Shown: positions 15,160-64,000, counted from the stretch's first letter. The stretch: DNA of 64,000 bases from Bacteroidales bacterium (GCA_016783905.1 JADHVQ010000001.1:51670-115669); one strand, 5' to 3'. The notes: generated from the sequence alone by a model not told the origin. Numbers and translations: made by a program.

Positions 15160-16596
15160 ATGAATTCGCTCATCATGATCATCGTATCGATCCTCCTTGC
15201 CGTCTCTCTCATCATTGCTGTTGTAGTTCTCCTCCTTCAGTATAAAAAGGGTAAAAACCTTCACCATCAGATTGGTGAAAAAGATGCAGAATTGAAGCGG
15301 TTAACCAGTGAGGTGAACTCCCTGCAGGAGCAGGTTACATTGCTGGCATCGAAAGAGGATGGGGAGAAAGAGTCGGAACGGTTAAAAACCGGCATTGAGC
15401 TTACGCTGAAAAAGGCCCTGAAGAGAGCTGAGGAGGAGAACTTTCAAAAGAATACCTTCCTCTCAAACCTTAGCTCTGAGATCCGGACTCCCCTGAATAA
15501 CATCATCGGGTTTGCCAGTTTACTGGAAACCGAAACCTCCCTGATCGAAAATAAGGAGTTATTTGAATATGCCCGGGGAATCTCTGAGAGTGGTGACAGG
15601 CTGATCAACCTGCTGAACAACATCATCGATATCAGCCGCATTGAATCACACGATGTAGATATTGTGATCAAAACCTGCTCGGTATCCACCATCATCTTCA
15701 GTGTGGCTCAGCTTTATGTTTTTAAAGCCAACGACCAGAAGATCAAGTTCAACATCATCAGCAAAGAGATCCCTGATGCTCTTGTCGATGACAAGGTGCT
15801 GACGAAAGTGCTCGGAGGGATCGTAGATAATGCCATTAAATACACAGAAAAGGGATTCGTCAATATCTCTACCGGATACCAGCCTAAAACCAATGAGATC
15901 ACCATCCGCGTGAAAGATTCGGGAAGTGGAATTGATCCTACCTACCTCAAAGAGATCTTCAATGCCTTCAGGCCGGAAAGTCCGGGATACAGCAAAGAGC
16001 TCCAGGGAACCCGCCTGGGATTACCTATTGCCAAGCGTTATGTAGAGATGATGAACGGGGATATCGAGATCGATTCAAAAAAGGGAGAGGGAACCACGGT
16101 TACTATTTTTTTAAAAGCAGCGGTAAAACAAGTTGAAGAAGCTGTTCCGGAGGTACTGGAAAAACCGGAAGAGGAAGAGGTTACTCCGAGGAAAACGAAG
16201 GTCCTGCAGGATCTGGATATTTTTATCGTTGAGGATGATCTGATGAACTCCATGGTACTGGTTCAGATGACCAAATCCCTTGGAAAGGTTACCACAGCAG
16301 TGAACGGAGAGGCTACCCTCAAGATCATTGCCGACAAAGCCTCCAAAGAGGAAAGTTTCGACATCATGTTATTTGACATCAACCTTCCTCCTCCCTACGA
16401 TGGTGTGAAACTGATGCACACCATCAAAAAACAATTTCCGGTCTATCAGCGGATCCCATTTATTGCCCAGACTGCCTATGCCATGACCGGCGACCGTGAG
16501 AAGCTGCTTGAAGCCGGATTTGACGATTACATCCCCAAACCAATCAACAAGAATGAACTTTACACCATCATGAAGAACCAACTGGAGATACGTTGA
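15160..16596 (+). CDS. membrane-anchored hybrid histidine-kinase-like protein (HisKA-like + HATPase_c + receiver) lacking the conserved H-box histidine
   Basis: One N-terminal TM helix and a coiled coil. H-box reads FLSNLSSEIRTPLN (tct Ser where His is expected). N box DNAIKYT, G1 DSGSGID, G2 GTRLGLPI. Receiver has FDINLPP and KP. Confidence 0.8.
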   Translation: MNSLIMIIVSILLAVSLIIAVVVLLLQYKKGKNLHHQIGEKDAELKRLTSEVNSLQEQVTLLASKEDGEKESERLKTGIELTLKKALKRAEEENFQKNTFLSNLSSEIRTPLNNIIGFASLLETETSLIENKELFEYARGISESGDRLINLLNNIIDISRIESHDVDIVIKTCSVSTIIFSVAQLYVFKANDQKIKFNIISKEIPDALVDDKVLTKVLGGIVDNAIKYTEKGFVNISTGYQPKTNEITIRVKDSGSGIDPTYLKEIFNAFRPESPGYSKELQGTRLGLPIAKRYVEMMNGDIEIDSKKGEGTTVTIFLKAAVKQVEEAVPEVLEKPEEEEVTPRKTKVLQDLDIFIVEDDLMNSMVLVQMTKSLGKVTTAVNGEATLKIIADKASKEESFDIMLFDINLPPPYDGVKLMHTIKKQFPVYQRIPFIAQTAYAMTGDREKLLEAGFDDYIPKPINKNELYTIMKNQLEIR

Positions 16597-17981
16597 TCAT
16601 GACTACCGGAAAGCAACAAGAGGAGAGGAATCACGAGATCAGAGGGGAACTGGAAAGTCGGATCAGGGAACTGGAAAGCAGGGTCAGGGAGTTGGAGAGC
16701 CGGATCAGAGAGCAAACGAACGAACTGACGCAGGCGAAGATAGAATCTCACAATGCCAACCAGAAAAAGACCATGTTTCTGGCCAACATGAGTCATGAGA
16801 TCAGGACCCCGATGAACAGTATCCTGGGGATCTATAATCTCCTTAAACAGACAAATCTCAATGAGGAACAGCAGGAGTTTCTGGAGATCATCCACATTGC
16901 CAGCCAGAACCTTCTGATCATCATCAACGACATCCTGGATCTGTCGAAAATTGAAGCAGGTGAATTGCAACTGGAGAAGAAGCCCTACTCCCTGCACGAA
17001 GAGATCCAGCAGGTGATCAAGTTGCTCTCCCTGAAAGCCAGAGGAAAAGGAATTGATCTCTATTCGCGGATTGATGCTGGCATACCGGTCTGCTTGATCG
17101 GGGATGCTATAAGGCTGAAGCAGATCATGATCAACCTGGCGAATAATGCCATCAAATTCACTAACGAAGGGGAGGTCCAGATCGCCATTGAAACGATCGA
17201 TCCTAAATCCCCTGAGTTCGAGAATCAGAAAGAGTTTATTCCAGAGTGGATCAACCCGGATAAATTGAATCCCAAACAGCAGATCCTGAAGTTTGAAGTC
17301 ATCGACACAGGCATCGGAATTTCGGATGAGGATCAGGAGACCCTCTTTTATGAATTCGCACAACTTGAGAATCCGTTGGTACGCCGGTTTGAGGGGAGCG
17401 GCCTGGGGCTTTCCATCTCCCGTAACCTCACACGACTGATGAAGGGGAAGATGGGCGTTGTCAGCCAGGAAGGGAAAGGTTCAGTTTTCTGGTTTACCCT
17501 GCTTGTGGAGGCAGGTGATGAAGCCCTGCTTAAAAAGGAGCAGGAAGAGATTGCAGCCTTACCAGGGAAAACCAGGAAACTGGACGTGCTTCTGGTCGAA
17601 GATAATCTATTGAACCAGAAGTTTGCCATGACCACGATGACGAGGGAGGGTCATCGCGTAGATCTGGCTGAGAACGGGAAGATCGCCCTGGATAAATTCC
17701 GTAACAATCATTACGACCTCATCCTTATGGATATTGCGATGCCGGTCATGGATGGGATGGAGGCTTCACGGATGATCCGTGAGATCGAGCAAAAGAAGTT
17801 GAAAAGCATGAGTAAAAAAGAGGCGGAAGCCTTTGCACCGGTGAAAATTGTTGCCATCACGGCTCACATCATGATGACGGATAAAAAGCAATGCCTTAAC
17901 GTTGGGATGAATGATTTCCTGGCCAAACCTTACCGCCCGAATGATCTCCTCAAGATTATTGAGAAGCTTGAAATCCACTGA
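16593..17981 (+). CDS. soluble hybrid sensor histidine kinase (HisKA + HATPase_c + receiver)
   Basis: Canonical H-box FLANMSHEIRTPMN, NNAIKFT, DTGIGIS, GSGLGLSI. Receiver VLLVEDN..LILMDIAMPVMDG..KPY. ATGA overlap with the upstream gene. Confidence 0.85.
   Translation: MIMTTGKQQEERNHEIRGELESRIRELESRVRELESRIREQTNELTQAKIESHNANQKKTMFLANMSHEIRTPMNSILGIYNLLKQTNLNEEQQEFLEIIHIASQNLLIIINDILDLSKIEAGELQLEKKPYSLHEEIQQVIKLLSLKARGKGIDLYSRIDAGIPVCLIGDAIRLKQIMINLANNAIKFTNEGEVQIAIETIDPKSPEFENQKEFIPEWINPDKLNPKQQILKFEVIDTGIGISDEDQETLFYEFAQLENPLVRRFEGSGLGLSISRNLTRLMKGKMGVVSQEGKGSVFWFTLLVEAGDEALLKKEQEEIAALPGKTRKLDVLLVEDNLLNQKFAMTTMTREGHRVDLAENGKIALDKFRNNHYDLILMDIAMPVMDGMEASRMIREIEQKKLKSMSKKEAEAFAPVKIVAITAHIMMTDKKQCLNVGMNDFLAKPYRPNDLLKIIEKLEIH
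16647..16709 (+). repeat. 3 x 21-nt in-frame tandem repeat (ELESRIR/ELESRVR/ELESRIR heptads)
   Basis: gaactggaaagtcggatcagg / gaactggaaagcagggtcagg / gagttggagagccggatcaga, read directly. Encodes a coiled-coil heptad at the kinase N-terminus. Confidence 0.85.
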
Positions 17982-30809: not shown

Positions 30810-30837
30810 TTAAAGGCTTTAGAGGAAACAGACAAGT

Positions 30838-31590: not shown

Positions 31591-31622
31591 CAATATGACC
31601 ATATGACCGTATGACGTATGAC
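31570..31622. repeat. octamer array NNNATGAC x6-7 containing the next gene's start codon
   Basis: tttttgac tcaatgac aatatgac catatgac cgtatgac gtatgac. The last ATG (31618) is the start of the TlpA-like gene. Confidence 0.8.
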
Positions 31623-33072
31623 TAAAACTCTTACCATCATAGCACTTCTTCTACTCGCTCTTCCCTTTTCCATGTTTGCCGGTCCGGATGGGTATACGGT
31701 GAAGTTCCGGATCCACGGTCTGAAGGATACGATCTGCCTGGTGGCCAACTACTACGGGAGTGGCACCTACGTTACTGATACGCTCGAAGTGGACGGGCAG
31801 GGCAGATGCATCTTCACCGCTCCGTCCGATCAACCCAGGGGAGTCTATATCCTGGTGATCTCAGATAACAACTATTTTGACTTTATAGTGAACAACGACC
31901 AGAAATTCACCATGGAGACCGATAAGGATGACCCTGTCAGACAGATGAAAGTCTCCGGCTCTCTCGATAACGAAGAGTTTTACGCCTACATGCAATTCAA
32001 CCAGGAGAAGTTCAAAGCCATCCAGGCACTTCAGGCGCAGCTGAAGTCCTATGAATCCAATGAGGATTCGCTCCAGGCGATCAACCAGAGGATCATCACC
32101 ATAAACGACGAGATCATCGACTACAAACTCAACATTGTGAAAGAACGGCCATTCTCCTTCCTGGCCATGCTGATCAATGCCATGAAAGAGCCGGTGATCA
32201 AAGAGATTCCCATACTGCCCAATGGGCGGAAGGATTCAACCTATAGGTACCGCTACTTCAAAGGACACTACTGGGATGACATGGATCTGGCTGACAACAG
32301 GCTGATCCGAACCCCGGTATTCCATAATAAACTGAAGAAATATTTTGACCAGCTGGTGGTGCAGCATCCCGATTCGATTTTCAAGGAGGCAGTGATCCTG
32401 ATCGAGAAGGCTCGTCCTGATCCCGAGATGTTTAAATACCTCGTGTGGTTTATCACCTATCACTACGAAAACTCGGAGATCATGGGCTTCGACAAAGTTT
32501 TTGTCGACATCGTGGATCAATACTATGTGACCGGAGAGGCTGCCTGGGTCTCCGGACCGGTACTTGAGAAGATCCTCAAAAAAGCGAGTCGGATCCGACC
32601 GTTACTGCTTGGCAAACAGGCACCCAACATGATCATGATGGATACCAGCAATCAGCTCGTTTCCCTTTACAGCATCAATGACTTCGTTACAATACTGCTC
32701 TTCTGGGATCCGGATTGCGGGCATTGTGAAAAGGAGGTCCCGCAATTGAAGGAATTTTATGAGAATTACAAAGAGAAGTATGATCTGGAGATCTTTTCTG
32801 TTTGCTCCGATACTTCGATGGCGAAGATGAAGGAATACATCCAGAAAAAGAAGATGACGTGGATCAATGTCAACGGGCCCCGGACGCTGACGGGTGACTA
32901 TCATGAGCTTTATGATATCCAAACCACCCCGGTGATCTACATCCTCGACAGGGACAAGAGGATCCTGGCAAAACGGCTACAGGCCGATCAGGTGGAGAAA
33001 TTCATCACCAACTATGTGAAGCGGGAGATCGGGTTGGACGGGTTTGACAAGTTGGATAGGTTGGACAAGTGA
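31618..33072 (+). CDS. TlpA-like thioredoxin-fold thiol:disulfide oxidoreductase with N-terminal extra domain
   Basis: 484 aa. Signal peptide. C-terminal thioredoxin motif FWDPDCGHCEKEVPQL. The last residues GLDGFDKLDRLDK are repeat-encoded. Confidence 0.8.
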   Translation: MTKTLTIIALLLLALPFSMFAGPDGYTVKFRIHGLKDTICLVANYYGSGTYVTDTLEVDGQGRCIFTAPSDQPRGVYILVISDNNYFDFIVNNDQKFTMETDKDDPVRQMKVSGSLDNEEFYAYMQFNQEKFKAIQALQAQLKSYESNEDSLQAINQRIITINDEIIDYKLNIVKERPFSFLAMLINAMKEPVIKEIPILPNGRKDSTYRYRYFKGHYWDDMDLADNRLIRTPVFHNKLKKYFDQLVVQHPDSIFKEAVILIEKARPDPEMFKYLVWFITYHYENSEIMGFDKVFVDIVDQYYVTGEAAWVSGPVLEKILKKASRIRPLLLGKQAPNMIMMDTSNQLVSLYSINDFVTILLFWDPDCGHCEKEVPQLKEFYENYKEKYDLEIFSVCSDTSMAKMKEYIQKKKMTWINVNGPRTLTGDYHELYDIQTTPVIYILDRDKRILAKRLQADQVEKFITNYVKREIGLDGFDKLDRLDK

Positions 33073-33786: not shown

Positions 33787-34344
33787 TTTCTTTGGGGCGA
33801 TGATCATGATCATCCGTTTGCCTTCGAGGCGGGGCATCTGTTCGATTTTACCGTAGTCCACTGCACCCTGGGCAAATTTCAGAAGCATGAGCTCTCCCTG
33901 GTCTTTATAGATGATGGATCGTCCTTTAAAAAAGACATCCACTTTTACTTTTGCACCATCTTTCAAGAACTTGATCGCGTGGTTCAGCTTGAAGTTGAAA
34001 TCGTGATCATCTGTGTTGGGTCCCAATCTGATCTCCTTCACCACTACCTTGGCCGTCTTGGCCTTCATCTCCTTCTGTTTTTTCTTCAGTTCATAAAGGA
34101 ACTTCTTGTAATCTATCACTTTACAGACAGGCGGATTGGCAGTCGGAGAGATCTCTACCAGGTCTAATCCCTGGCTTTCTGCTATGGCCAGAGCTTCTCT
34201 CAGCGTATAGATATCCGCTCTGACATTGTCGCCTACCACACGAACAACAGGCGATTTTATTCTCTCATTGATAAAGTGAAGATCTTCTTTTTTCTGCGGC
34301 CTGCTATAGCGCCGCCTGGCTCCATGATATGGCTTTTTTGCTAT
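33784..34344 (-). CDS. infC: translation initiation factor IF-3, probable non-canonical ATA start
   Basis: The conserved N-terminal region ([19 protein letters not shown]) lies upstream of the tracked GTG start. The frame is closed by TAA two codons above ATA 34344, and AGGAGG lies 8 nt upstream of that ATA. Confidence 0.85.
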
Positions 34345-34362
34345 TGTTTAAACCTCCTATAT

Positions 34363-34394
34363 TTTGATTTACGATTGATACGATTTACGATTTA
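34363..34394. repeat. heptamer array (CGATTTA-type) between thrS and infC
   Basis: ttgattta cgattgata cgattta cgatttag. The same unit family occurs inside the queE insert (58310-58358). Confidence 0.8.
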
Positions 34395-40461: not shown

Positions 40462-41862
40462 TCAAATCGTTGAGAGGTACGCATGCATTGACCGGGCGGA
40501 TATTCGTCCGGCGCCCATGGCAAGGATGACGGTGGCTGCTCCGGTAACGATATCGCCTCCAGCCCAGACCCTGTCCAATGAGGTTTTACCGGTGCTTTCA
40601 TCCACCACAATGGTTCCATTTTTGGAAACTTCAAGTTCGGGAGTCGTTTGTGGGATGATGGGATTGGGACTATTCCCGATAGCTACAATGCATGCATCCA
40701 TCGGCATGATAAATTCTGAACCGTCAATCCGGATCGGCCGGCGGCGTCCTGACTGATCAGGTTCACCCAGTTTCATTCTTGAGCACTCGATCTCTTTCAG
40801 CCACCCGTTCTCATCGCCGATCAATTTTTCGGGGAGGGTTAGAAAGTGAAAAATCACCCCCTCCTCTTCCGCATTTTCAAATTCCTCGAGCCGCGCAGGT
40901 AACTCCTGCTGTGATCTCCGGTAGACAATATAGACCTCTTCGGCACCCAACCGGAGTGCAGTCCGGGCACAGTCCATCGCTACGTTCCCCCCTCCTACTA
41001 CAGCGACTCTTTTATGTCTTTTCACCGGTGTATAGGACTTCGGGTATTCAAATCCTCTCATCAGGTTCACCCGTGTAAGGTATTCATTGGCGGAATAAAC
41101 GCCATTCAGGTTCTCACCCGGTATCTCCATGAACCAGGGTAATCCTGCCCCCGTGCCGAGAAATACGGCATCGTACTCTTCCAGTATCTTCTTCAGTGAC
41201 CTGGTCTTTCCGACCACATAATTGCAGACGAGCTTCACACCGAGTTGTTGAAGATAGTTGATCTCTCTGCTCACTACCTTCCCGGGCAGACGAAACTCCG
41301 GGATGCCATAGGTAAGCACCCCCCCGGGCTCGTGCAAGGCCTCGACCATCGTTACATCATGTCCAGCCAGGATCAGATCGCCGGCCACGGTGATTCCGGC
41401 CGGACCGGATCCAATCACCAGCACCTTTTTGCCGGTATTCAGTTTAATCTCCGGCAACTCAATCTTACCCTGTGAGGCTTCCCATTCCGCTGCAAACCGT
41501 TCCAGGCGGCCGATGGCAACCGGTGTCCCTTTCTTCCCCAGGATACATTTGATCTCGCACTGCTCCTCCTGAGGACAAACCCTTCCGCAAACCGCCGGCA
41601 GACAGTTTTTCTCTTTTAAAATCTTGATCGACCCGGAAAAATCCTCAGCAGCAATGCAGCGGATGAAGCCGGGAATGTCAATTTCAACGGGACAGCCATC
41701 GATGCAGACAGGCTTCTTACAATCAATGCATCTCTTTGCCTCTTTCACAGCCATCTCTGGTGTATATCCCAGAGCTACTTCCGCAAAGTTTCTACGCCTG
41801 ATGTAGGGCGGCTGTTTGGGCATTTCAACCCGTTCGAATCTCGAGGTTTTCTTTTCTGCCAT
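40462..41862 (-). CDS. nfnB: GltD-like NADPH-dependent oxidoreductase, NfnB-type large subunit
   Basis: Start trimmed to MAEKKTSRFERVEMPKQPP (ATG 41862, GGAGGA 7 nt upstream). N-terminal 2x[4Fe-4S] Cys motifs (CIDCKKPVCIDGCP, CGRVCPQEEQCE). GSGPAG and GGGNVAMD dinucleotide folds. Confidence 0.85.
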   Translation of the reverse strand: MAEKKTSRFERVEMPKQPPYIRRRNFAEVALGYTPEMAVKEAKRCIDCKKPVCIDGCPVEIDIPGFIRCIAAEDFSGSIKILKEKNCLPAVCGRVCPQEEQCEIKCILGKKGTPVAIGRLERFAAEWEASQGKIELPEIKLNTGKKVLVIGSGPAGITVAGDLILAGHDVTMVEALHEPGGVLTYGIPEFRLPGKVVSREINYLQQLGVKLVCNYVVGKTRSLKKILEEYDAVFLGTGAGLPWFMEIPGENLNGVYSANEYLTRVNLMRGFEYPKSYTPVKRHKRVAVVGGGNVAMDCARTALRLGAEEVYIVYRRSQQELPARLEEFENAEEEGVIFHFLTLPEKLIGDENGWLKEIECSRMKLGEPDQSGRRRPIRIDGSEFIMPMDACIVAIGNSPNPIIPQTTPELEVSKNGTIVVDESTGKTSLDRVWAGGDIVTGAATVILAMGAGRISARSMHAYLSTI

Positions 41863-41863
41863 G

Positions 41864-42694
41864 TTATATTCCTCCACATCCAGAATGATGAACAAGAAAC
41901 GCTTCTTCACCAACATATTGTTGTCTTCTCTTTGCAAGCTCTTCCCAATCGACCAATCTTCCGTCGAACTCGGGACCGTCGACACAGGCAAACTTCATCT
42001 CCCCGTTAACTGTACAGCGGCATACACCACACATCCCTGTTCCGTCGATCATGATCGTATTCAGGGTAACCATCACAGGGACATCGAAATGGGCATACTC
42101 CTGTGTGGTTTTGTACGACAGGGTCATGCATCCGTTAGCAATCACCCGGTTGGGTTTGATCCCTGTCTCCCTGATGATATCATCGCCTTTTTTAATGTGT
42201 CCTTTATAACCGTAACTGCCGTCTCGGGTCAGTTTGATCACCCGATCACTGTATCGTGCCAGTTTCTCTTCCCAGTAAAGCAAATTTTTACTACGCCCCT
42301 CCATGATGGTGATCACCTTATTGCCTTTTTCTTTTAATGCCCTGACGACAGGAAAGATCGATCCCATTCCGAAACAACCGCCGATGCAGATCACGGTCCC
42401 GAAATGGTCTATCTCCGTAGGCTTACCAAGCGGGCCGACAACAGTGGGTATTGCATCCCCCGGTTCCAGCAAAGCCAGTCTACCCGTGGAAGTGCCCACT
42501 TCCATGAAAACAATGGACAATGTTCCCGTTTCATGGTCCCAGTCGGCCGCTGAAAGGGGGATCCGTTCCGAACCTTCCCCGGCATGGACGATTACAAATT
42601 GTCCCGGCTGAATCTCTTCCACCACATCCGGTGCATGAACCACCAGCAGGTGAAGGTTCGGGACGATCATTTTCCGTTCAACAATTTCAAACAT
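41864..42694 (-). CDS. nfnA: PyrK-like FAD/[2Fe-2S] subunit, NfnA-type small subunit
   Basis: 276 aa. Ferredoxin-reductase fold with C-terminal Cys cluster GMCGVCRCTV...FACVDGPEF. Lies 1 nt from nfnB. Confidence 0.85.
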   Translation of the reverse strand: MFEIVERKMIVPNLHLLVVHAPDVVEEIQPGQFVIVHAGEGSERIPLSAADWDHETGTLSIVFMEVGTSTGRLALLEPGDAIPTVVGPLGKPTEIDHFGTVICIGGCFGMGSIFPVVRALKEKGNKVITIMEGRSKNLLYWEEKLARYSDRVIKLTRDGSYGYKGHIKKGDDIIRETGIKPNRVIANGCMTLSYKTTQEYAHFDVPVMVTLNTIMIDGTGMCGVCRCTVNGEMKFACVDGPEFDGRLVDWEELAKRRQQYVGEEAFLVHHSGCGGI

Positions 42695-45017
42695 GATCCC
42701 GCTTTAAGTTTACGTAACAAGGATTACTATCGAATTCCAGTTCACCGTTTATTTTAGATAGATATACATATCCAGGAAGGACGTTTTTACGGATGGCCGC
42801 TTTGAATTTCATCTTCTTCCCCGGAGCATGTAACTGGATAAGTTCCCCGGATTTCAGCTCTAATTTCCCGGCATCATAGGGATTGAGAATGAGATGACCG
42901 GGCAACGTCAGCTCCCCGAGGGCGGGTATCTCCCTTCCAAGGTTCGAATTGCAGAATGCATGTGGATTTTTCTCCTGGATCAGGATATAGGGGAATCTTT
43001 TACCCGGAGAAGATGGCTTTCCCCCGGCAGATGAAACTGGTTTCTTTGAACCCATCACCGGAATGTGGAAGTTATTGGAAAGGGATTCTTTGATCGATTT
43101 CTGTGAAAATCCGCTCCTTTTTATCTTCGCTGAGCCTGCTATGCCTGAGAATATTTCGATATGGGAACGGGCATAACCATGTGGAACTGCAACCGCTTTA
43201 TATTTTTTAATTCTTCCGTTGTCAGTCAAAAGAGAGCCGCCCGTTTCCCCCCATAAAGACGAAGGTAAAATCAGATCCGGATTTAATCCTGCCGGGGATG
43301 GAAATGCGTTCTGATAAATCACATGTTTTACCTTGGGTCTTTTCGTGAATGGGGCATCTCCAACCAAATAGAGCAGGTCGATCTTCCCCTCTTTGATTTG
43401 TTGCAGGATCTCCTCAACCGGTTTCATCCTGATGAGCGATAACATGCCGTAAAGGTTGCCATACGGGTTGGGCATAAAGAGCCCGGATCCGGTGAGGTCG
43501 GCAATCTGCCTGATTTTATCCAGCATCGTGATGCAGCCACTCAACGAGACAATCTGGGGACCCACGACAAGGATGCCGTTCTTTGATTTTTTCATCGATC
43601 CGGCCAGTTCATGGATCTCAGGTGTGTTACACTGGCCGTTTTTCAGACAGGTGATTATGTCGTTCAGATACGCTATCTCCTCACCCGGAGCCGGAACGAA
43701 CCGGTGGCGGGCAAAACGTGAAGTGGTATCCGTGATCCATCCCAGCTGATAATATGGGACACCCTTCTCTGCTGCAGATTTGATTGCAAGTGTCAACGGG
43801 GCATAATTATAATTCCCGTTCAGGTATGCTGAAAAAATGGCACCGGACTGATCCAGGTCCTGCAAAGAGACTGAATCCTGGGCCAGCTTCAGGTATGCCG
43901 TCATTTTTTCATCCAGGCACGATGAAGTAACCACACCGCCCTTTAAGATGTGTTCGCTAAAATATCCTGCTGTGTAAATCTCTTCCAGCGTCAGGGATGG
44001 AGAGATAAATAGGGCCGTACGTTTGGGTGAAATACCCGCTGTAATCTCCCTGGCTTTTTCCATGGCAAAGTCCCATGAAACAATCCCATAGCCTTCAGGA
44101 TACCAGTACTCGGGTTCGAGGATCCGATCTGTTCTGTTAACAAGTTCGCTCAAACAGAAGCGGCCTTTTACACAAAGATCTCCTCCGGATTCATGTGCTT
44201 TGCCCGGTGGGATCGTGCCAACAATCTTATCTTTCAGGGTCAGCACCTGGATGTCGCAATTCAGGCTGCAAAGCGGGCAAACGGAAGGTTCAATCTTTTC
44301 AGGATCCCCCCACCATTTCCTGCTTTTTTCCGACATGGCACCGGTAGGGCAAACGGAAACGCATGCACCACAGAACTCACAGTTCGCGTGGATATGGGTT
44401 TCGTCGAAGGCAGGGCCAATTGCGGTCTGCTTTCCCCGTTGTTTCAGGGAAAGCACGGAGCTCTTTCGGTACTCATTGCAGATCCTTACACACCGGCCGC
44501 AATAGATGCACAGGTTATAATCTCTGTCAAAGAACGGATCATACTTCTCCAGAGGCAGATCCCGGTACAGTCCGGGCAGTGTGAGATCATCGATTCCAAA
44601 TTGTTCTACGATCCTCTGCAGTTCACAGTCGTTATCCTTCGGGCACCATCGGCACCCGGTTGTGATCCCTACTTTTCTGATCGTACCCTGAAAGACTTTA
44701 CACCCTTCAACATCATCACACATCATACAGGCGGCCGGATGTTCGCTTAAGATTAACTGGATCATCTCGCGGCGGATCTCCTGCAACACGTTTGTATCGG
44801 TGCGGACGATCATACCCTCTTCAGCCATGGTGGTGCACGAGGTCGGGTACCCGTCTCTTCCTTCAATTTCGACGACACACAACCGGCACCCTCCATAGGG
44901 CGTCAGTTCCGGATGTGCACAGAGAGAAGGAATGTCGATGCCGTGCTTTGTCGCGACATCAAGTACAGTGGCGGGTTTGCCAATGGTAATTTTCCGGTTG
45001 TCAATGGTCAGGTTCAT
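42687..45017 (-). CDS. NuoG / formate-dehydrogenase-alpha-fold iron-sulfur subunit without recognisable catalytic Cys/Sec-His motif
   Basis: N-terminal 2Fe-2S (CAHPELTPYGGCRLC..SC), HPAACMMCDDVEGC (HxxxCxxCx5C), extra GCRWCPKDNDC, two ferredoxin-type motifs, CPLCSLNCD...C molybdopterin-type 4Fe-4S, and a long Mo-oxidoreductase-like body with a C-terminal barrel. The position of the FdhA C/U-H motif reads VTSSCLDEK. Confidence 0.75.
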   Translation of the reverse strand: MNLTIDNRKITIGKPATVLDVATKHGIDIPSLCAHPELTPYGGCRLCVVEIEGRDGYPTSCTTMAEEGMIVRTDTNVLQEIRREMIQLILSEHPAACMMCDDVEGCKVFQGTIRKVGITTGCRWCPKDNDCELQRIVEQFGIDDLTLPGLYRDLPLEKYDPFFDRDYNLCIYCGRCVRICNEYRKSSVLSLKQRGKQTAIGPAFDETHIHANCEFCGACVSVCPTGAMSEKSRKWWGDPEKIEPSVCPLCSLNCDIQVLTLKDKIVGTIPPGKAHESGGDLCVKGRFCLSELVNRTDRILEPEYWYPEGYGIVSWDFAMEKAREITAGISPKRTALFISPSLTLEEIYTAGYFSEHILKGGVVTSSCLDEKMTAYLKLAQDSVSLQDLDQSGAIFSAYLNGNYNYAPLTLAIKSAAEKGVPYYQLGWITDTTSRFARHRFVPAPGEEIAYLNDIITCLKNGQCNTPEIHELAGSMKKSKNGILVVGPQIVSLSGCITMLDKIRQIADLTGSGLFMPNPYGNLYGMLSLIRMKPVEEILQQIKEGKIDLLYLVGDAPFTKRPKVKHVIYQNAFPSPAGLNPDLILPSSLWGETGGSLLTDNGRIKKYKAVAVPHGYARSHIEIFSGIAGSAKIKRSGFSQKSIKESLSNNFHIPVMGSKKPVSSAGGKPSSPGKRFPYILIQEKNPHAFCNSNLGREIPALGELTLPGHLILNPYDAGKLELKSGELIQLHAPGKKMKFKAAIRKNVLPGYVYLSKINGELEFDSNPCYVNLKRDHV

Positions 45018-46891
45018 TCTTCCTTCCTTGAAGTGATTACAATAGCATTTCCTGCAATGGCATCATACCTGCACACATCATAGCAGGCGCGGCATTTGAT
45101 GCATTTTTCTTTATCCAGGTTGTGTGGTTCGGAGCGGGGTCCGATGATGGCTCCCGTCGGACAAACGCTTACACATAACTGGCATCCGGTACATTTCTCC
45201 CGGATCACCGAATATTCTATCAGAGAACTGCAAACCAGCGCCGGGCAGTAATATTCGTTCAGGTGCTCCACATATTCCGATCTGAAGTAACGAAGTGTGG
45301 TAAGAACAGGATTCGGGGCGGTTTGCCCCAGGCCGCACAGCGAGGTTGATTTAACGAGTTTTGCCAGGGATTCAAGTTTATCCAGGAATTCCGGTTCTGC
45401 ATCCCCGCGGCAAATTTTTTCCAGTATTTCGACCATATGGCGGGTACCGACCCTGCATGGCGTACATTTCCCACACGACTCTTTCTGAATGAAATCGAGA
45501 AAATACCTCGCTATATCAACGACACAGGTATCCCGGTCCATGACGATCAATCCGCCTGAACCCATGATGGAGCCAACCGATGCTAGTGTTTCGTATGTCA
45601 CCGGCGTATCCAGAAGTTCCTCCGGGATGCATCCGCCTGAAGGGCCTCCGGTCTGAACTGCCTTAAATTCTTTTTGTGGTCCACCACCGATGTCAAAAAT
45701 AATTTTCCGCAACGAAGTTCCGAGCGGAACTTCAATCAGTCCGGATCGCCTTATCTTGCCGACGAGTGAAAAGGTTTTGGTTCCGAAGTTGCCTTCCACA
45801 CCAAATTGCCTGTACCATTGTGATCCGTTTCTCAGGATGTGAGGAACGGTACTAAGGGTTTCCACATTATTGATGATGGTTGGGTTTTGATGCAATCCCG
45901 AAACAGCAGGAAACGGTGGCCGGGTTCGGGGCATTCCCCGCTTCCCTTCTACCGAGTGAATGAGTGAGGTCTCTTCCCCGCAAACAAAGGCACCCGCACC
46001 CTCTTTGATCCGGATGTCAAACGAAAAATCAGAACCGAGGATTTTTTCCCCGAGCAGGCCGTATTGATCCATTTGGCTTAATGCATGCCTCAACCGGATG
46101 ATGGCCAGTGGATATTCTGCGCGAATGTAGATGATGCCGTGAGAAGCACCAATGGCATATCCGGCGATCAGCATCCCTTCCAGCACGGCATGCGGATCAC
46201 TTTCAATCAACAGACGATTCATAAAGGCGCCCGGATCACCTTCATCCGCATTGCAGATCAGGTATTTTTCATCGGACACTGTATTCCGGCATGTACGCCA
46301 CTTTATCCCGGTGGGGAATCCTGCTCCTCCTCTTCCGCGAAGACCTGCATCCGTGATCTCATCGATGATCGCGTCAGGAGTTTTCTGCAACGCTTTTGAA
46401 AGGCCCTCATACCCACCATTGGCAATGTAATGATGAATATTTTCAGGATCTATCAGACCACAGTTCTTTGTGACTATCCTCACCTGTGATTGCAGCATCG
46501 GCTGATCAAAGAATCTGGGTACACCATCGAAAGAGTTTGTCCCGAAATGACCAAGCACCTTTCCTTTATGGCACTCTTTTTCAAGCAGATACTTGCGGAG
46601 AATTGCTTCGGCCGACTTCTCATCCACGTTTCCGAAAGAGACACGGGGATTGCCGAATGCACTGATGTCCATAATGGGTTCGAGGTAACAGGTCCCTATA
46701 CACCCAACCTCAACCAGCTTTGCCGAAAGATGATACTTCTTTAGTGTCGCTTTTACAGCTTCCCTGACCTTGTCCGCTCCTGCAGCTTTCCCACATGAAG
46801 CCATCCCCAGATAAATGACAGGCTCCTTCCTGGTGATGAGTGCATTCCATTCGGCGGCACTTTTCTTTTTGAGTTTCGTGAAGTTATTCAT
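45014..46891 (-). CDS. NuoF-like NADH/FMN subunit of HydB/Bfu type (with extra N-terminal 2Fe-2S and C-terminal 2x[4Fe-4S] domains)
   Basis: GRGGAGFPTGIKW, NADEGDPGAF, ESCGKCTPCRVG. N-terminal thioredoxin-like SCGKAAG..GCIGTCYLEP. C-terminal CTGCQLCVSVCP and CIKCRACYDVC. Confidence 0.9.
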   Translation of the reverse strand: MNNFTKLKKKSAAEWNALITRKEPVIYLGMASCGKAAGADKVREAVKATLKKYHLSAKLVEVGCIGTCYLEPIMDISAFGNPRVSFGNVDEKSAEAILRKYLLEKECHKGKVLGHFGTNSFDGVPRFFDQPMLQSQVRIVTKNCGLIDPENIHHYIANGGYEGLSKALQKTPDAIIDEITDAGLRGRGGAGFPTGIKWRTCRNTVSDEKYLICNADEGDPGAFMNRLLIESDPHAVLEGMLIAGYAIGASHGIIYIRAEYPLAIIRLRHALSQMDQYGLLGEKILGSDFSFDIRIKEGAGAFVCGEETSLIHSVEGKRGMPRTRPPFPAVSGLHQNPTIINNVETLSTVPHILRNGSQWYRQFGVEGNFGTKTFSLVGKIRRSGLIEVPLGTSLRKIIFDIGGGPQKEFKAVQTGGPSGGCIPEELLDTPVTYETLASVGSIMGSGGLIVMDRDTCVVDIARYFLDFIQKESCGKCTPCRVGTRHMVEILEKICRGDAEPEFLDKLESLAKLVKSTSLCGLGQTAPNPVLTTLRYFRSEYVEHLNEYYCPALVCSSLIEYSVIREKCTGCQLCVSVCPTGAIIGPRSEPHNLDKEKCIKCRACYDVCRYDAIAGNAIVITSRKEE

Positions 46892-47342
46892 AGTTGCTCC
46901 ACATTTCCTTAAGTTTAATAATGTTTACCTTGCTGTGAATGTCCTCGTCGATCTTCACAACGGGCGCTAGTGCGCAGCATCCGAGGCAGGCGACCCTGTT
47001 CAGGTCGAACCGCATATCGGAAGTACACTCGCCCGATTTGACCTCCAGATCCCGCTCACAGGTCTCCAGCAGGATTTCACCTCCTACAACATGACAGGCA
47101 GTACCCAGGCATATGCTGATGGAGTGTCTGCCCGGTTCACTGAACCGGAATTGGGAGTAAAAAGAAGCTACACCAAAAACCTGACTTTCAGTCAATTGTA
47201 AATAGTCAGCCACCGTTTCAACGATCTCAGGTGAGATATATCCGAGTTCTCCCTGGGCTTTCTGGAGAAGAGGGATCAAACTGCCCTCTTCCTTCGGATA
47301 GGTACACATATATTCTGTAAAACAGGTGATACGTTCTTTCAT
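46884..47342 (-). CDS. NuoE-like thioredoxin-fold [2Fe-2S] subunit (HydC type)
   Basis: 152 aa. CLGTACHVVGG and CLGCCALAPVV Cys pairs. Confidence 0.9.
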   Translation of the reverse strand: MKERITCFTEYMCTYPKEEGSLIPLLQKAQGELGYISPEIVETVADYLQLTESQVFGVASFYSQFRFSEPGRHSISICLGTACHVVGGEILLETCERDLEVKSGECTSDMRFDLNRVACLGCCALAPVVKIDEDIHSKVNIIKLKEMWSNYE

Positions 47343-47353
47343 TGTCTCTCTTT

Positions 47354-48613
47354 TTAATGGGTACTCAACTTGAAAAATATACAGTCCGATAAATCAGCTT
47401 CCCCGCGGGCACAATCCTGTGCAAATGTCTCGCAGGATGGCGCCCCGCACAAGCCACAATCTTTTTTGGGAAGCTTAACTAAGATCCTCTCCTTCTGGAT
47501 CATCCGTTTGATGGAGGTGCCAATATCTGAAGCCAGCGCTCTTGTGGGACGCGGAAGAACATGCCTTCCCAGGAAATAGTATTGCTCTTTGTATTTTTTC
47601 AGAACCTCCTGTTCGTTAAACGATTTCGGTTCTCCGAAATTTTTTTCGAGTATGATGGCAGTATGCCGGGCGATGTATGGATTCTCAACGCAAAAGATAC
47701 CTCCCATACACCCCTGGGTACAGGTAAATGCTTCGATGTAATCGATGTTTCTCAGTTTTTCGGTTTCAATGTCGTTGAGGACATTCATGATGTTCTCAAT
47801 ACCCACGACCGTAAGGTGTCTTTCAGCATCCAGGTACTGTGATACATGGCCTATCTCTCCCCAGCCTCTGCCATAATAAAAATAGTCATCCGTGCTTTTC
47901 GGTTTCTGGCCCTTATTCACCATCATTAACTCCGGAAGTATCATGTTGTAGATATCTTTAATCGCGATAGCGCCATCAAACCAGGATTTCTCTTTCTCAG
48001 CCGGCTGCTTGATGGAGACTACCATAGCAGGGCAGGATGTAATGTATATAGCGCCGATTTTGCTCATACTAATACCCAGTTTCTCTGCATATTCATGTTT
48101 TGCCTCCTTGGCCGTGATCTCGCGGGGGACATCAAAGGTGGAGATCAGCTCCATTAAATTTGGGTAATTAACCTGTATCAGTCTGATCAAGGCAGGGCAA
48201 AATGAGCTGATGATCGGTCTCTCTTTTGGATTGGTTTTTATATGCTCAGAGATAGCAAACATCAGTTCATGGCAAACCCTGGAACTATCAACAACGGCAT
48301 CGAAACCAATATTTTTCAATGCCTGATGAACCAGACTGGGATGAATAGCTGATCCGAATTGGGTGTAAAGTGTTCGGGAGGGAATGGCAAGTTTGAATTC
48401 AAATTTCTCGAAGTCACTGATTTCGTCAATCATGGGAACAAACACATGCTCAGGACAAACATTGATGCATGCACCACAATCAACACAAAGGTCGTCGTAA
48501 TAGGTGATCGTCCCGTGTCTTAATCTGATGGCCTCGGTTGGACATGCTCTGAGGCACTTCATCCTCCCGGTGCACTTTTCGGGAATAATCACATGTGAAT
48601 GATAATACTTCAT
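47354..48613 (-). CDS. [FeFe]-hydrogenase H-domain-like iron-sulfur protein with variant H-cluster motifs (putative sensory/regulatory, not a canonical HydA)
   Basis: 419 aa. N-terminal CLRACP / CVDCGACINVCP. L1-like SSFCP, L2-like TSCPAMVVS, L3-like EAFTCTQGCMGG. C-terminal CGLCGAPSCETFAQDC Fe-S motif. Confidence 0.75.
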   Translation of the reverse strand: MKYYHSHVIIPEKCTGRMKCLRACPTEAIRLRHGTITYYDDLCVDCGACINVCPEHVFVPMIDEISDFEKFEFKLAIPSRTLYTQFGSAIHPSLVHQALKNIGFDAVVDSSRVCHELMFAISEHIKTNPKERPIISSFCPALIRLIQVNYPNLMELISTFDVPREITAKEAKHEYAEKLGISMSKIGAIYITSCPAMVVSIKQPAEKEKSWFDGAIAIKDIYNMILPELMMVNKGQKPKSTDDYFYYGRGWGEIGHVSQYLDAERHLTVVGIENIMNVLNDIETEKLRNIDYIEAFTCTQGCMGGIFCVENPYIARHTAIILEKNFGEPKSFNEQEVLKKYKEQYYFLGRHVLPRPTRALASDIGTSIKRMIQKERILVKLPKKDCGLCGAPSCETFAQDCARGEADLSDCIFFKLSTH

Positions 48614-56002: not shown

Positions 56003-58000
56003 CTACCTCCCCACAATCCTGAACTCTGTCCGCCGGTTGTTGGCCCGGCCGGCTTCGGTGTCGTTGGTGTCGATGGGATTGTCAAATCCATAGCCGGAAT
56101 AGGTCATGCGGTCATATGAAATACCCTGGTCGACAAGGTAGTTGAATACTGCCTTCGCCCTGTTTTCAGACAATTCCAGGTTGTGCTCCTCAGAGCCTAT
56201 GATGTCGGTATGGCCGCTGATCTCGATTTTCAGTGATGGATTAGTCCTTAGGAGATGTACTAGTTTCTCTAGTTCGATGTAAGATATAGGTTTTAAGTCG
56301 TACTTATCCGTATCAAAAAAAATGTTTTTCAGCACCACGGTTTCTCCTACCCTGATGGGTTGGAGGGGGATATTTTTCAGAAAAGGTTTCGCCTGATCAC
56401 GGATGCCGGTCAATGCAAAATTATCTGAATAAAACAGATACCCTTCACGGGAAACATTCAGCGCATAATCCCGGTCGGCAGGTAAACAAACCAGAAAAGA
56501 TCCATCAACCGGGTCGGAGATAGATTGAACGGCAACCTCGTTGCGTTCCAGGTCAGTTAGCTCAAAATGGGCTTGCAGGAGATTTCCGGTCTCTTTATCG
56601 AAGACAATCCCTTTCAGGTAGGTGACCGGATTGGGCTGTGCCTCTTTGTATAGCGGAAAAGAGTAAATATCCTGCCTCCCTTTTCCCCCAAACTTATCGG
56701 AAGAGATGTACGCAACATCTCCGGTGGAGTTTACGACCAGGGTAATTTCATCGGCGTAGGTGTTGATCGGATAGCCCAGGTTTTCAGGCGTCTGCCAGGC
56801 GCCATCCAGCTTCCTGCGGGTATAGAAGAGGTCGAGACCTCCCATCCCCTCATGTCCTTTTGAAGCAAAATATAACGTTTGATCATCAGGATGGATGAAG
56901 GGATTTTGTTCCTCTCCGGCGGTATTCACCGAGTCGCCCAGGTTGACGGGAGGGGTCCAGTCACCCGTGGGCAATAACTCGCTCTTCCAGATGTCGCTGC
57001 TCCCCTTTCCACCGGATCGTTTGCTTGCAAAATAAAGCGTTTTGCCGTCAGAGGAGAAAGAGGGCTGTGAATCCCAGGTCATAGAATTGACCACCGGTCC
57101 CAGGTTCCGGGGTGCCGACCACCGGTTACCCATCTTCCACGACCAGTAAATATCGCAACTCCCGAAGCCATCTTCACGCTGACAGGCAGCAAAAAACAGC
57201 AACTGTCCATCAGGAGAGATGGAGATCGCCCCTTCGTTCCCACGTGTGTTGATGGGCGGCCCCAGGTTATAAGCCCTGAGCCAGGCAGAATCGCCGGAGA
57301 GGGAGGAAAGGTAGAAATCCTCTTCAATGGCTTCTGATCTCACGTCGGTAATGGCTCTGGTAGGCAGGCGGCGGGTGAAATAGAGCGTCTGCTTATCGGA
57401 GGAGATGGCATTGATGTATTCGTCGTGCATGGTATTGATGCTATCGCCCAAATTAACAGGATTGAATGGCACCGGGTGGCTTACCATCTCTATCCCGAAG
57501 TCACACCTGTGGATGTTCTCCTCGGTTTGCCATCGCCGGTTGGAAGGCCCTTTATTAAAGGAGAGATACCTGATATAATCCCGTTTTGCCTCTTCGTACC
57601 GACCCGTAAGTAGTTTCAGGTTCCCCAGAATCACATAGAGGTTATAATCCAGGCCGGGAAGCAGCTGAACCGCCTGGCCGTAATTCGTAATCGCTCCCTC
57701 CATATCGTGTTGCTCTGCCGCCAGATCTCCTTTCAGGGCATAGGCTTCGGCAAAACCGGGGTCAGCCTCCAGCGCTTTCCCCAGGGAAGCAATAGCCTGA
57801 GAAAAATCCCTCCGCTGGTACTGCTCATAAGCCTGTTGATAAAATTTCTTTGCTTTTTTGGAAGAGCTAGAGAGGCTTTGTGAAGATTGAGCCAGTGACT
57901 CGTGACCGGTGACCAGTGACCAGTAACCAGTGAGTGGTGAGTAGTGAATAGTGAGTAGTGAGAAGCAAAAAAGGAGAGATATTTTTAGGAGTGTTTTCAT
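56003..58000 (-). CDS. OmpA-family peptidoglycan-binding protein with TPR, PD40/TolB-like beta-propeller repeats
   Basis: 665 aa. TPR region (AEAYALKGDLAAE..). Repeated TLYF(A/T)S(K/R)R propeller motifs. C-terminal OmpA_C (FDTDKYDL...SGHTD..G....N..LS..RA..V..YL). N-terminal region contains the heptamer array. Confidence 0.85.
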   Translation of the reverse strand: MKTLLKISLLFCFSLLTIHYSPLTGYWSLVTGHESLAQSSQSLSSSSKKAKKFYQQAYEQYQRRDFSQAIASLGKALEADPGFAEAYALKGDLAAEQHDMEGAITNYGQAVQLLPGLDYNLYVILGNLKLLTGRYEEAKRDYIRYLSFNKGPSNRRWQTEENIHRCDFGIEMVSHPVPFNPVNLGDSINTMHDEYINAISSDKQTLYFTRRLPTRAITDVRSEAIEEDFYLSSLSGDSAWLRAYNLGPPINTRGNEGAISISPDGQLLFFAACQREDGFGSCDIYWSWKMGNRWSAPRNLGPVVNSMTWDSQPSFSSDGKTLYFASKRSGGKGSSDIWKSELLPTGDWTPPVNLGDSVNTAGEEQNPFIHPDDQTLYFASKGHEGMGGLDLFYTRRKLDGAWQTPENLGYPINTYADEITLVVNSTGDVAYISSDKFGGKGRQDIYSFPLYKEAQPNPVTYLKGIVFDKETGNLLQAHFELTDLERNEVAVQSISDPVDGSFLVCLPADRDYALNVSREGYLFYSDNFALTGIRDQAKPFLKNIPLQPIRVGETVVLKNIFFDTDKYDLKPISYIELEKLVHLLRTNPSLKIEISGHTDIIGSEEHNLELSENRAKAVFNYLVDQGISYDRMTYSGYGFDNPIDTNDTEAGRANNRRTEFRIVGR
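57895..57964. repeat. two-block heptamer array (GTGACCN x5, GTGAGTA-type x5) inside the OmpA-like coding region
   Basis: gtgactc gtgaccg gtgacca gtgacca gtaacca gtgagtg gtgagta gtgaata gtgagta gtgagaa. Translated as LLTIHYSPLTGYWSLVTGH just after the signal-peptide core. Confidence 0.85.
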
Positions 58001-58782
58001 GGTATCCCAATGTACTTATGCATCTGCAGTGAGAGTTTCCAGGCAGGATTGGATTCGATGTAGCGAATGATGTTTGGCAACATGATTTCGCGTAGGCTCC
58101 ATTCAGGCTGAAGAAAGAGGTGTGCATGGGGGTTCATCCGGTCGGCCTGCTCTTCCGCCCACCCGAAATCCTCCTCTTCATGGATGATCACTTTGAGCTC
58201 ATGGCTGATGGTATAAAACTCCTCCCGGGGAGGCCAGTCACGTTTGGGAGAGAGGCAGATCCAGTTCCAGGAGCCGGAAAGAGGCTGTGAGCCGGAGGTC
58301 TCGAGAAAAGTCGTTACGATTTTAGATGTACGATTTACGATATTCGAAGTTCGATGATGCCCCCAAACCCCCTGAAGGGGGCTTACTCCCTCCCCTTCAG
58401 GGGAGGGTTGGGGTGGGGTAATCTCTTGAACCTTGAACCTTCCGCGAGCGCTGAAGCTACTCTGCGGAGTCGCTGAATTTTGAACCTGTAATTGTTCACA
58501 AAGATAGTCGAGGTTATATAGCAGGGGCTCACCGCCGGTGACAACGACCGCATTGGCCGGGCACTTCAGAGCCTTCGCAACCACTTTATCGGTTTCAACA
58601 GGAGGGAAAAGATCGGCGTCCCAGGATTCTTTAACATCGCACCATGTACAACCTACATCGCACCCGCCAATCCGGATGAACCACGCAGCCTCTCCCGTAT
58701 GATATCCCTCTCCCTGGAGGGAGTAGAACTCCTCCATCACTGGAAGCAACATACCAGATTCTAAAAGCTCTTGCTGGGTCAT
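57997..58782 (-). CDS. queE: 7-carboxy-7-deazaguanine synthase (radical SAM) carrying a 60-codon repeat-derived in-frame insertion
   Basis: FYSLQGEGYHTG, CDVGCTWCD (CxxxCxxC), VVTGGEPL, FLETSG, LSLQMHKYIGIP. Residues ~99-158 are encoded by repeat modules. ATGA overlap with the downstream gene. Confidence 0.8.
   Translation of the reverse strand: MTQQELLESGMLLPVMEEFYSLQGEGYHTGEAAWFIRIGGCDVGCTWCDVKESWDADLFPPVETDKVVAKALKCPANAVVVTGGEPLLYNLDYLCEQLQVQNSATPQSSFSARGRFKVQEITPPQPSPEGEGVSPLQGVWGHHRTSNIVNRTSKIVTTFLETSGSQPLSGSWNWICLSPKRDWPPREEFYTISHELKVIIHEEEDFGWAEEQADRMNPHAHLFLQPEWSLREIMLPNIIRYIESNPAWKLSLQMHKYIGIP
58309..58488. repeat. 180-nt composite repeat insertion: CGATNNN heptamers x7 + GC nested hairpins + CTTGAAC-type heptamers
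   Basis: 58310-58358 is cgatttt agatgta cgattta cgatatt cgaagtt cgatgat. 58360-58420 is cccccaaaccccctgaagggggcttactccctccccttcaggggagggttggggtgggg. 58425-58487 is cttgaac cttgaac .... Confidence 0.85.
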
Positions 58783-58793
58783 GATTCACTTAT

Positions 58794-58878
<85 letters not shown>

Positions 58879-58897
<19 letters not shown>

Positions 58898-63528: not shown

Positions 63529-63567
63529 AAAAGAGGCTCTCTCGTTACGGGGAGCCTCTTTTTTTTT
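63529..63567. terminator. bidirectional rho-independent terminator between convergent genes
   Basis: Stem agaggctc (63532-63539) / gagcctct (63552-63559), flanked by an A-run on the left and T9 on the right. Confidence 0.75.
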
Positions 63568-64000
63568 ACATCCGATCCGGTACAGAAATTCCCAGCAGCT
63601 CCATCCCTTTACGGATCACCTTGCCGGTAATGGCTGACAGCATCAGGCGCAGGCCGATAAGCTCCTTACGCTCTTCGCGTAAAACCGGGATCTCCTGGTA
63701 AAACTGGTTGTACTCCCGGGCGAGGTCGTAAATATAATTGGCTATCAATGCAGGACTGAGCTCTGCACCAGCCTGACTGACCACAGAGGGGTACTGGTAT
63801 AGAAGCTTCAGGATCTCGCGCTCCGGAGGGAGGAGGAACGAATTATGAGGGACGAGTGACGAAGGACGAGGGAGGAGGGACGAGGAATCGCGAATCGTGG
63901 ATCCCGTATCGCGCATCACATATCCCGCATCTGCCGCCTTCCTTAATAACGACTTTATCCGAGCATGCGTATATTGAATAAAGGGTCCGGTATTGCCGTT
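63566..64000 (-). CDS. argS: arginine--tRNA ligase, C-terminal part (partial, continues right of window) with repeat-derived in-frame insertion
   Basis: GNTGPFIQYTHARIKS and the anticodon-binding DALR region ..ANYIYDLAREYNQFYQ..RLMLSAITGKVIRKGMELLGISVPDRM. In frame to nt 64000. Confidence 0.9.
   Translation of the reverse strand, partial: NGNTGPFIQYTHARIKSLLRKAADAGYVMRDTGSTIRDSSSLLPRPSSLVPHNSFLLPPEREILKLLYQYPSVVSQAGAELSPALIANYIYDLAREYNQFYQEIPVLREERKELIGLRLMLSAITGKVIRKGMELLGISVPDRM
63826..63930. repeat. two-block heptamer array, 15 units = 105 nt, inside argS
   Basis: gagggag gaggaac gaattat gagggac gagtgac gaaggac gagggag gagggac gaggaat / cgcgaat cgtggat cccgtat cgcgcat cacatat cccgcat. 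Confidence 0.85.

Follow-up and report, generated by a model that had tools for sequence, protein, structure and literature searches.

The queE gene of a Bacteroidales bacterium, located in a stretch of 64,000 nucleotides (GCA_016783905.1 JADHVQ010000001.1:51670-115669, hereafter the window, numbered from its first letter), contains a segment of short tandem repeats and a GC-rich hairpin that lies in frame between two conserved parts of the enzyme. We consider it probable that this segment is repeat DNA of a selfish or neutral kind which the gene tolerates, and that it is translated into a disordered loop on the surface of a functional QueE. The first-pass annotation had described a single 180-nt element inserted into this gene in one genome. 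Comparison with related sequences indicates that one recent insertion does not explain the site, as about 20 related lineages carry differently built repeat inserts of lineage-specific composition at the same position; by the same comparison, the hairpin represents a separate, secondary insertion into the array. The gene and the segment are as follows.

57997 to 58782, minus strand: queE, encoding the radical S-adenosylmethionine (SAM) enzyme 7-carboxy-7-deazaguanine synthase; 261 amino acids including the insert, with the cluster motif C41-x3-C45-x2-C48.
58309 to 58488, minus strand: variable segment of 60 codons (amino acids 99-158); the site holds 7 residues in over 100 insert-free homologues, giving a net insertion of about 53 codons (about 160 nt).

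The assignment of this open reading frame (ORF) to the radical SAM gene queE, as originally proposed, agrees with profile, domain, structure and database evidence. The top five models in an NCBIfam profile search are all QueE equivalogs, a Radical_SAM domain is identified by Pfam, and the matches among PDB sequences are three solved QueE proteins (6nhl, 4njg and 5tgs). An AlphaFold2 model of the protein resembles the crystal structures of these three with a Foldseek probability of 1.00, and no other family is found with E < 0.1. GenBank contains an identical 261-aa protein, named QueE, from a Bacteroidales metagenome-assembled genome (MBL7137234.1). The best NCBIfam score, 91.8 bits, does not reach the curated QueE equivalog cut-off of 200 (TIGR04322), because the insert splits each match into an N-terminal and a C-terminal stretch and because this subfamily is divergent. 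The cysteines C41, C45 and C48 (CX3CX2C, 4Fe-4S) and the motif G83-G84-E85-P86 (GGEP, SAM-binding) are invariant in the homologue alignment. Furthermore, the ratio of nonsynonymous to synonymous substitutions (dN/dS) is 0.03-0.09 on both sides of the insert (ungapped flanks of 240 and 309 nt, with saturated synonymous sites, dS > 1.2), which indicates a functional gene under purifying selection on both flanks and contradicts the earlier alternative that the gene is inactivated. The insert DNA is 100% identical in ERZ24794671, ERZ24794656 and GCA_014874595.1 (7 contigs in total), and its presence in three independent assemblies shows that the segment is not an assembly artefact. A megablast comparison of the queE gene with phage genomes returned no match.

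The 60 codons comprise the whole variable stretch, flanked by the conserved L of LCEQL on one side and the F of FLETSGS on the other. This is the position given in the first-pass annotation, between GGEPLLYNLDYLCEQL and FLETSGS, where insert-free QueE has just those 7 residues, and residues 99-158 of the minus-strand ORF read as first quoted. The insert had also been described as exactly 60 codons without a stop; it is indeed in frame and stop-free, whereas 60 codons is not the inserted length, which is the net value of about 53. The insert has no sharp boundaries, as its outermost repeat units merge into native codons. All three modules that had been listed (a CTTGAAC-type block, a GC hairpin core and a CGATNNN block) are present where claimed, with repeats far above chance, and copies elsewhere in the window confirm that the segment is composed of the genome's own dispersed repeat modules. 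The list was incomplete in one respect, in that a small hairpin at 58442-58473 had not been separated out. The components are, in plus-strand coordinates:

58314 to 58355, minus strand: heptamer block of six units, TTACGAT-type on the plus strand and ATCGTAA-type on the coding strand, encoding ..SNIVNRTSKIV.
58359 to 58419, canonical orientation on the plus strand and antisense to queE: GC-rich, REPIN-like hairpin core of 61 nt, encoding ITPPQPSPEGEGVSPLQGVWG.
58425 to 58441, minus strand: heptamer block of 2.4 CTTGAAC units (GTTCAAG on the coding strand), encoding ..RFKVQ...
58442 to 58473, minus strand: small hairpin CCGCGAGCGCTGAAGCTACTCTGCGGAGTCGC, nested in the CTTGAAC block and unique in the window.
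58474 to 58487, minus strand: degenerate CTTGAAC-type units (TGAATTT TGAACCT) merging into the native L-Q-V-Q codons.

In the block at 58314-58355, the units are arranged as two super-units of 21 nt (7 codons) with 81% identity, and the last unit merges into the native I-x-T codons. The hairpin core reads, 5' to 3', left arm GCCCCCAAACCCCCTGAAGGGGGC, a short linker, the palindrome CCCTCCCCTTCAGGGGAGGG and then TTGGGGTGGGGT, and contains perfect 12-nt arms (CCCCTGAAGGGG and CCCCTTCAGGGG).

The site was compared in the best 120 of 8000 homologues, and the insert DNA in eight orthologous loci. In the locus scan, L001 is the sole insert-bearing locus among the matches listed and L002-L080 are insert-free; the genome of the window does not appear among these matches. 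The gene order ffh-folD-queE-TPR/PD40/OmpA is kept across the compared loci, which identifies the queE loci as orthologous. The 21 clusters of closest homologues (P0002-P0022) have 13-63 residues at the site, corresponding to 6-56 extra residues. In the remaining homologues (193-224 aa), LCxxL and F/YLETSG are joined by a turn of constant length, 7 residues. Homologues P0024-P0120 and loci L002-L080 lack the segment, and no homologous 60-aa stretch occurs in these insert-free relatives, in agreement with the earlier reading of the segment as inserted. Between lineages, the insert peptides share no alignable sequence, and the DNA units differ accordingly. The insert of L084 contains four GGGTCGA units, CCAAATC, four CACGGAT units and CCTCGAC, and that of L090 contains four GGTTCAA units, ATCCAAA and CCTCGAC. 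L089 carries GCACAGA-type units followed by ATCCAGC and ATCCGGC, L086 the octamer AGTGATCC followed by ATCCGGC, and L001 the octamer GGCACAGG followed by ATCGTAA. GTTCAAG-type units are found at the same insert edge in the orthologues L090, P0008 and P0013 (FKVQG). The outer units blend into native codons, as in ATCCGGC ATCCGGC ATCCGAACT, which encodes ..IRHPASGIRT.

The combination of saturated synonymous sites between lineages with near-perfect arrays within lineages implies that the arrays are much younger than the lineage splits, and thus that the queE site is continually rebuilt. Inside 90%-identity clusters, insert length is constant and insert sequence nearly so (P0122, 18 contigs; P0130, 29; P0134, 8), which suggests slow turnover on the population scale and gives no sign of phase variation, although this test is weak in that a protein database would not show frame-shifted alleles.

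In all eight lineages compared, stops interrupt the insert in two of the three sense frames (1-5 stops), and only the frame of queE stays open throughout. This argues for translation of the insert rather than its removal from the mRNA, and about 53 extra residues would thus be added to the protein. In the AlphaFold2 model, these residues form a predicted disordered loop, probably at the surface, between helix 92-100 (LDYLCEQLQ) and strand 157-162 (TTFLET); no secondary structure is assigned to residues 101-156, and the predicted local distance difference test score (pLDDT) is below 50 for residues 104-152. A surface loop was among the outcomes that the first-pass annotation had proposed to look for by structure prediction, and the model is consistent with it. 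In the partial barrels of radical SAM enzymes, the binding sites for the cluster, SAM and the substrate are at the C-terminal strand ends. Since the invariant ETSG follows strand 157-162, the loop would enter the N-terminal end of this strand, on the other side of the barrel from the Fe-S cluster and the substrate site, and the enzyme could thus keep working.

These observations are compatible with the following scenario. An array would have become established in the codons of the short helix-to-strand turn in an ancestor shared by about 20 species-level lineages, and would then have been repeatedly rebuilt by slippage, duplication and replacement of units, with the hairpin entering it separately in a few lineages. 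Selection on QueE would purge variants that shift the frame or create a stop, leaving net changes in multiples of 3. As only in-frame, stop-free versions pass selection, super-units of three units (21 or 24 nt) would be expected. The insert itself most likely does nothing useful.

The repeat units of the insert belong to a wider population of arrays, spread over the genomes of this Bacteroidales clade and for the most part intergenic. The window contains eight period-7 arrays versus 0.1 in shuffled sequences, and other periods are represented by 0-2 arrays (periods 4-6 and 9-12 by 0-1). TTACGAT doublets occur six times versus 0.46 expected, at three loci, of which those at 30780-30812 and 34362-34394 are intergenic. 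Most arrays in the window are located between genes or at gene ends. Among the matches listed, the density of 7/8-nt arrays is 0.43 per kb in insert-bearing clade loci versus 0.07 in 79 insert-free Bacteroidota loci (L002-L080), about sixfold fewer. Arrays of 8- and 9-nt units are also present in the window (at 33032-33152 and 31587-31622: six copies of CTCACCAG, five of GGTTGGACA and 3.6 of ATGACCAT), the 9-mer array overlapping the 3' end of a thioredoxin-like gene (31618..33072), and L084 contains seven copies of GGGAAGTA at 3300-3430. The repeat process is thus not strictly heptameric.

The hairpin core belongs to a family of GC-rich elements of about 60 nt with inverted arms of 21-23 nt (CCCCYAAAYCCCCTRAAGGGG), similar to a REPIN or a MITE. 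The string CCCCTNNAGGGG occurs seven times in the window versus 0.04 expected, and further copies of the hairpin were identified at the following positions.

31509 to 31622, no strand assigned: hairpin of the family (CCCCCTAAAGGGGG..., copy at 31523), directly followed by a 7/8-nt array (ATGACNN).
33739 to 33790, no strand assigned: hairpin copy (CCCCTCCCCTGAAGGGGAGGG...GGGTGGGGT, copy at 33755).
58795 to 58897, no strand assigned: composite hairpin in the folD-queE spacer; the same spacer also contains hairpins in L084 and L086.

The 3' end of folD, comprising its five final codons (YPQTP) and the TGA stop, is formed by the right arm of the spacer hairpin (58874-58897), an arrangement shared with L084. 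Matches to a relaxed pattern at 19136 and 55853 look like chance and were discarded.

At the queE site, the hairpin is found in three lineages only, those of the window, P0003/L087 and P0010/L086. The plus strand of the window, which is noncoding for queE, aligns with the coding strand of L087 over 64 ungapped nt with a score of 78, versus 29 for the other strand, and the same holds for L086; the window hairpin is thus oppositely oriented. The three hairpin-bearing lineages fall into three different subclades of a rough neighbour-joining tree of the flanks, which, together with the opposite orientation, calls for an inversion or for two or more independent insertions. Neither orientation interrupts the queE frame, and the resulting peptides (SPEGEGVSPLQG and SPKGELLPSLQG) are related because the element is palindromic.

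Nineteen inverted arm pairs with spacers of 24-113 nt were identified. Compensatory agreement between arms was found in 11 of the 19, versus 40% by chance, and is not significant. The arm ends lack a GTAG or CGTC tag; the arms start with CCCC and are flanked by GATG, TTAA, TGTA or CCTG. The arm is widespread in environmental metagenomes, where a scan with the 21-nt arm gave at least 155 matches; of the 155 listed, 11 (about 7%) lie deep within open frames, the three histidine kinases of L112 described below among them. A full-text search of the available papers for the palindrome strings of the hairpin returned none of relevance.

Repeats of these types are also found in other genes of the window, including a second case inside the ORF of a housekeeping enzyme.

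57889 to 57973, minus strand: heptamer array, CCAGTGA / AGTGAGT on the plus strand and GGTCACT-type on the coding strand, in the N-terminal region of the TPR/PD40/OmpA gene (ORF 56003..58000).
63566 to 64000, minus strand: argS, encoding arginyl-tRNA synthetase, the second in-ORF case; the gene extends past the window end.
63826 to 63917, minus strand: in-frame heptamer arrays in argS, GAGGGAC- and GAATCGC-type, in the linker before the DALR domain.

The argS arrays add about 13 residues relative to solved ArgS. P0140, P0143 and P0145 have longer, IQHPASS-type inserts at this spot, with the unit ATCCAGC, as in the queE insert of L089. The array at 57889-57973 encodes SPLTGYWSLVTGH, and the peptide SPVTGHWSL is kept in L084, L086, L087 and L089 despite saturated synonymous sites, which may reflect either selection on the peptide or homogenisation of the array. 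In L112, three paralogous histidine kinases (344-430, 3828-3947 and 6101-6187) each contain two inverted 23-nt arms, in frame in the HATPase_c domain, which flank 43 nt of native coding sequence and leave a native strand between them (APKSPEGD-FLFQPTVTVTTKRK-SPLGDLGAG).

The window itself encodes a hybrid histidine kinase (16593..17981), in which the HATPase_c match spans 135 residues for 108 model positions and the residues DPKSPE are encoded by CCTAAATCCCCTGA (about 17199-17222, plus strand). This site looks like a decayed in-frame hairpin arm at the loop occupied in L112. Three tandem copies of a 21-nt repeat (GGGAACTGGAAAGCCGGATCA; 16645-16708, plus strand) are located in the N-terminal part of this kinase gene; they encode a 7-residue peptide repeat and are not evidently composed of 7-nt units. 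Elsewhere in the window, the minus strand at 40462-48613 encodes NuoF- and NuoE-like subunits, a molybdopterin/Fe-S subunit and a Fe-only hydrogenase large-subunit domain, followed by a DRTGG/HATPase protein. This region looks like an electron-bifurcating hydrogenase-type operon, which would fit an anaerobic lifestyle. Type IX secretion system (T9SS) sorting domains and PorP/SprF are also encoded, consistent with Bacteroidota.

Among known systems, the Rickettsia palindromic elements (RPEs; Ogata et al., 2000, 2002) are known for in-frame insertion into housekeeping genes (PMC10969869). As far as the cited account of RPEs extends, the elements described here resemble them in forming a dispersed palindromic family whose members are found in intergenic DNA as well as in frame within unrelated housekeeping genes, and apparently in residing where the fold tolerates an insert while the host gene stays functional (PMC10969869), as suggested here by purifying selection and the predicted loop. 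The analogy with RPEs drawn in the first-pass annotation thus appears to stand at the level of behaviour, a selfish repeat tolerated in a predicted surface loop of a working enzyme. Within the same account, the differences are substantial. The present elements occur in another phylum and are presumably unrelated in sequence, the hairpin is about 60 nt rather than 100-150 nt, and it lies within tandem arrays of 7/8-nt units, a feature absent from RPEs. Each RPE encodes a conserved peptide, whereas the heptamer-coded parts of the queE insert differ between lineages. Furthermore, unlike in RPEs, one and the same site is occupied in about 20 lineages, each with its own rebuilt version, and the queE frame runs through the hairpin in either orientation.

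Heptanucleotide repeats, known as STRR or long simple sequence repeats (LSSR), have been described, in the accounts drawn on here, from cyanobacteria, Beggiatoaceae and some Bacteroidetes (PMC4679880, PMC4692102; Mrazek 2007 cited there). The published examples are overwhelmingly intergenic, with in-ORF cases in small hypothetical ORFs and an rpoC-like gene noted in passing (PMC4679880, PMC4692102). The arrays of the window share with them the dispersal of several 7-nt families, mostly intergenic near gene ends, and insertions and deletions in steps of 7 nt (PMC4679880, PMC4692102). In contrast to STRR and LSSR, however, they are also found deep within conserved enzymes (queE and argS), where they persist at an orthologous site. 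REPINs are doublets of REP sequences that form hairpins and are moved by RAYT transposases (PMC3116915, PMC3733652). Like REPINs (PMC3116915), the hairpins of the window consist of two inverted palindromic arms of about 21 nt separated by a spacer, and their copies are dispersed and mostly extragenic. They differ from REPINs in lacking the GTAG/CGTC tag (PMC3733652), in the lack of a RAYT gene among the window ORFs and in an arm concordance that is not significant (values above). These comparisons indicate a real case of selfish repeats in genes, RPE-like in behaviour, here in Bacteroidales and as a general phenomenon of the clade. Tiny hairpin-forming repeats nested in one another, beside heptameric tandem repeats, were reportedly found in Nostoc by Elhai et al. 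in 2008; these are cyanobacterial and of different sequence, and provide a lead rather than a test.

Several points weigh against tolerated, translated repeat DNA as the explanation. Neutrality of the insert is assumed, and a disordered loop could have a role. The evidence for translation consists of the maintenance of the frame, the loop coincides with a low-confidence region of the model, and its placement opposite the active site derives from general knowledge of the fold, not from distances. The arrays may have been imported rather than formed in place by slippage, as proposed above, since slippage does not by itself explain why other loci of the genome contain units of these families. P0024, which is insert-free, falls inside the insert-bearing clade in the rough neighbour-joining tree. 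A Pfam search found neither a transposase nor a RAYT among the approximately 50 ORFs of the window, and no consistent direct repeat indicative of a target-site duplication was found beside four compared hairpin copies, which do have inverted arms. In addition, the association of the arm with 7/8-nt arrays is weak among the listed metagenome matches (7/155, 4.5%, versus 31/2400, 1.3%), so that the modular pairing may be a feature of the clade rather than of the element. Arrays and hairpins could alternatively be placed and renewed by an active, site-preferring process, as yet undescribed and compatible with coding sequence, which we regard as unlikely yet deserving of consideration. If this were the case, the CCCCYAAAYCCCCTRAAGGGG family would be an uncharacterised and very widespread mobile element of Bacteroidota that routinely enters loop-coding DNA (queE, histidine kinases). 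The 7/8-nt arrays would then act as its landing pads, and would continually provide housekeeping enzymes (queE, argS) with new protein loops.

Other explanations assign a function to the insert or deny it a place in the protein. A variable disordered loop could give QueE a lineage-specific interaction or regulation, with the repeats as raw material. The occupation of the site in about 20 lineages through long divergence, the open queE frame and the near-constancy of the insert within clusters of up to 29 contigs would all fit such an adaptive role, which is nevertheless decidedly improbable: the peptide is not conserved between lineages and ranges over 6-56 extra residues, it is a direct read-out of DNA units that are also present between genes, lineages differ in the orientation in which the hairpin is read, and a 7-residue turn suffices in P0024 and hundreds of homologues. 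Gain or loss of a single 7-nt unit might instead switch queE off and on within populations, given that neither 7 nor 8 is divisible by 3, which would make any single-unit change a frameshift, and that some lineages have near-perfect arrays, such as the fourfold CACGGAT and GGGTCGA of L084. We consider such phase variation very unlikely, as the arrays of the window are degenerate (71-81% matches) and no length variants were found in P0122, P0130 and P0134, subject to the weakness of that test noted above. Removal of the insert before the protein functions, at the RNA or protein level, had been raised in the first-pass annotation and is highly improbable. The sense-strand RNA across the insert does fold more stably than shuffled sequences (-65.5 kcal/mol, z = -3.7), but a scan of all 64,000 nt against Rfam returned no family, on which ground a known structured RNA was rejected; the 60 aa of the insert are far below intein size, conserved splice-junction residues are lacking, and length and sequence differ in every lineage. 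An excised RNA, moreover, need not stay a multiple of 3 and free of stops, and yet the queE frame alone is open in all eight lineages. On these grounds (sole open frame, variable length, empty Rfam scan), an intron, intein or translational bypass was dismissed. The notion of a pseudogene or an assembly chimera is barely credible. It could draw on the profile scores below the curated cut-offs, caused by the split match, and on the classical role of repeats in misassembly, but it conflicts with the identity of three independent assemblies, the low dN/dS of the flanks, the intact catalytic motifs and the conserved order from ffh to the TPR/OmpA gene.

Tolerated repeat DNA in a working QueE thus remains the probable explanation. 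The turnover at an orthologous site and the hairpin read in two orientations are the notable aspects of this system, which most likely represents tolerated junk rather than a new mechanism. As the inserts split hidden Markov model matches and lower them below curated cut-offs (92 versus 200 bits here), genes of this clade risk under-annotation. Selfish DNA in protein genes, best known from Rickettsia, would be extended to free-living Bacteroidales, here with 7/8-nt arrays and a REPIN-like hairpin. A single enzyme loop that has apparently been rebuilt about 20 times would furthermore provide a natural time series of repeat DNA becoming protein and of the tolerance of a radical SAM enzyme to insertions.

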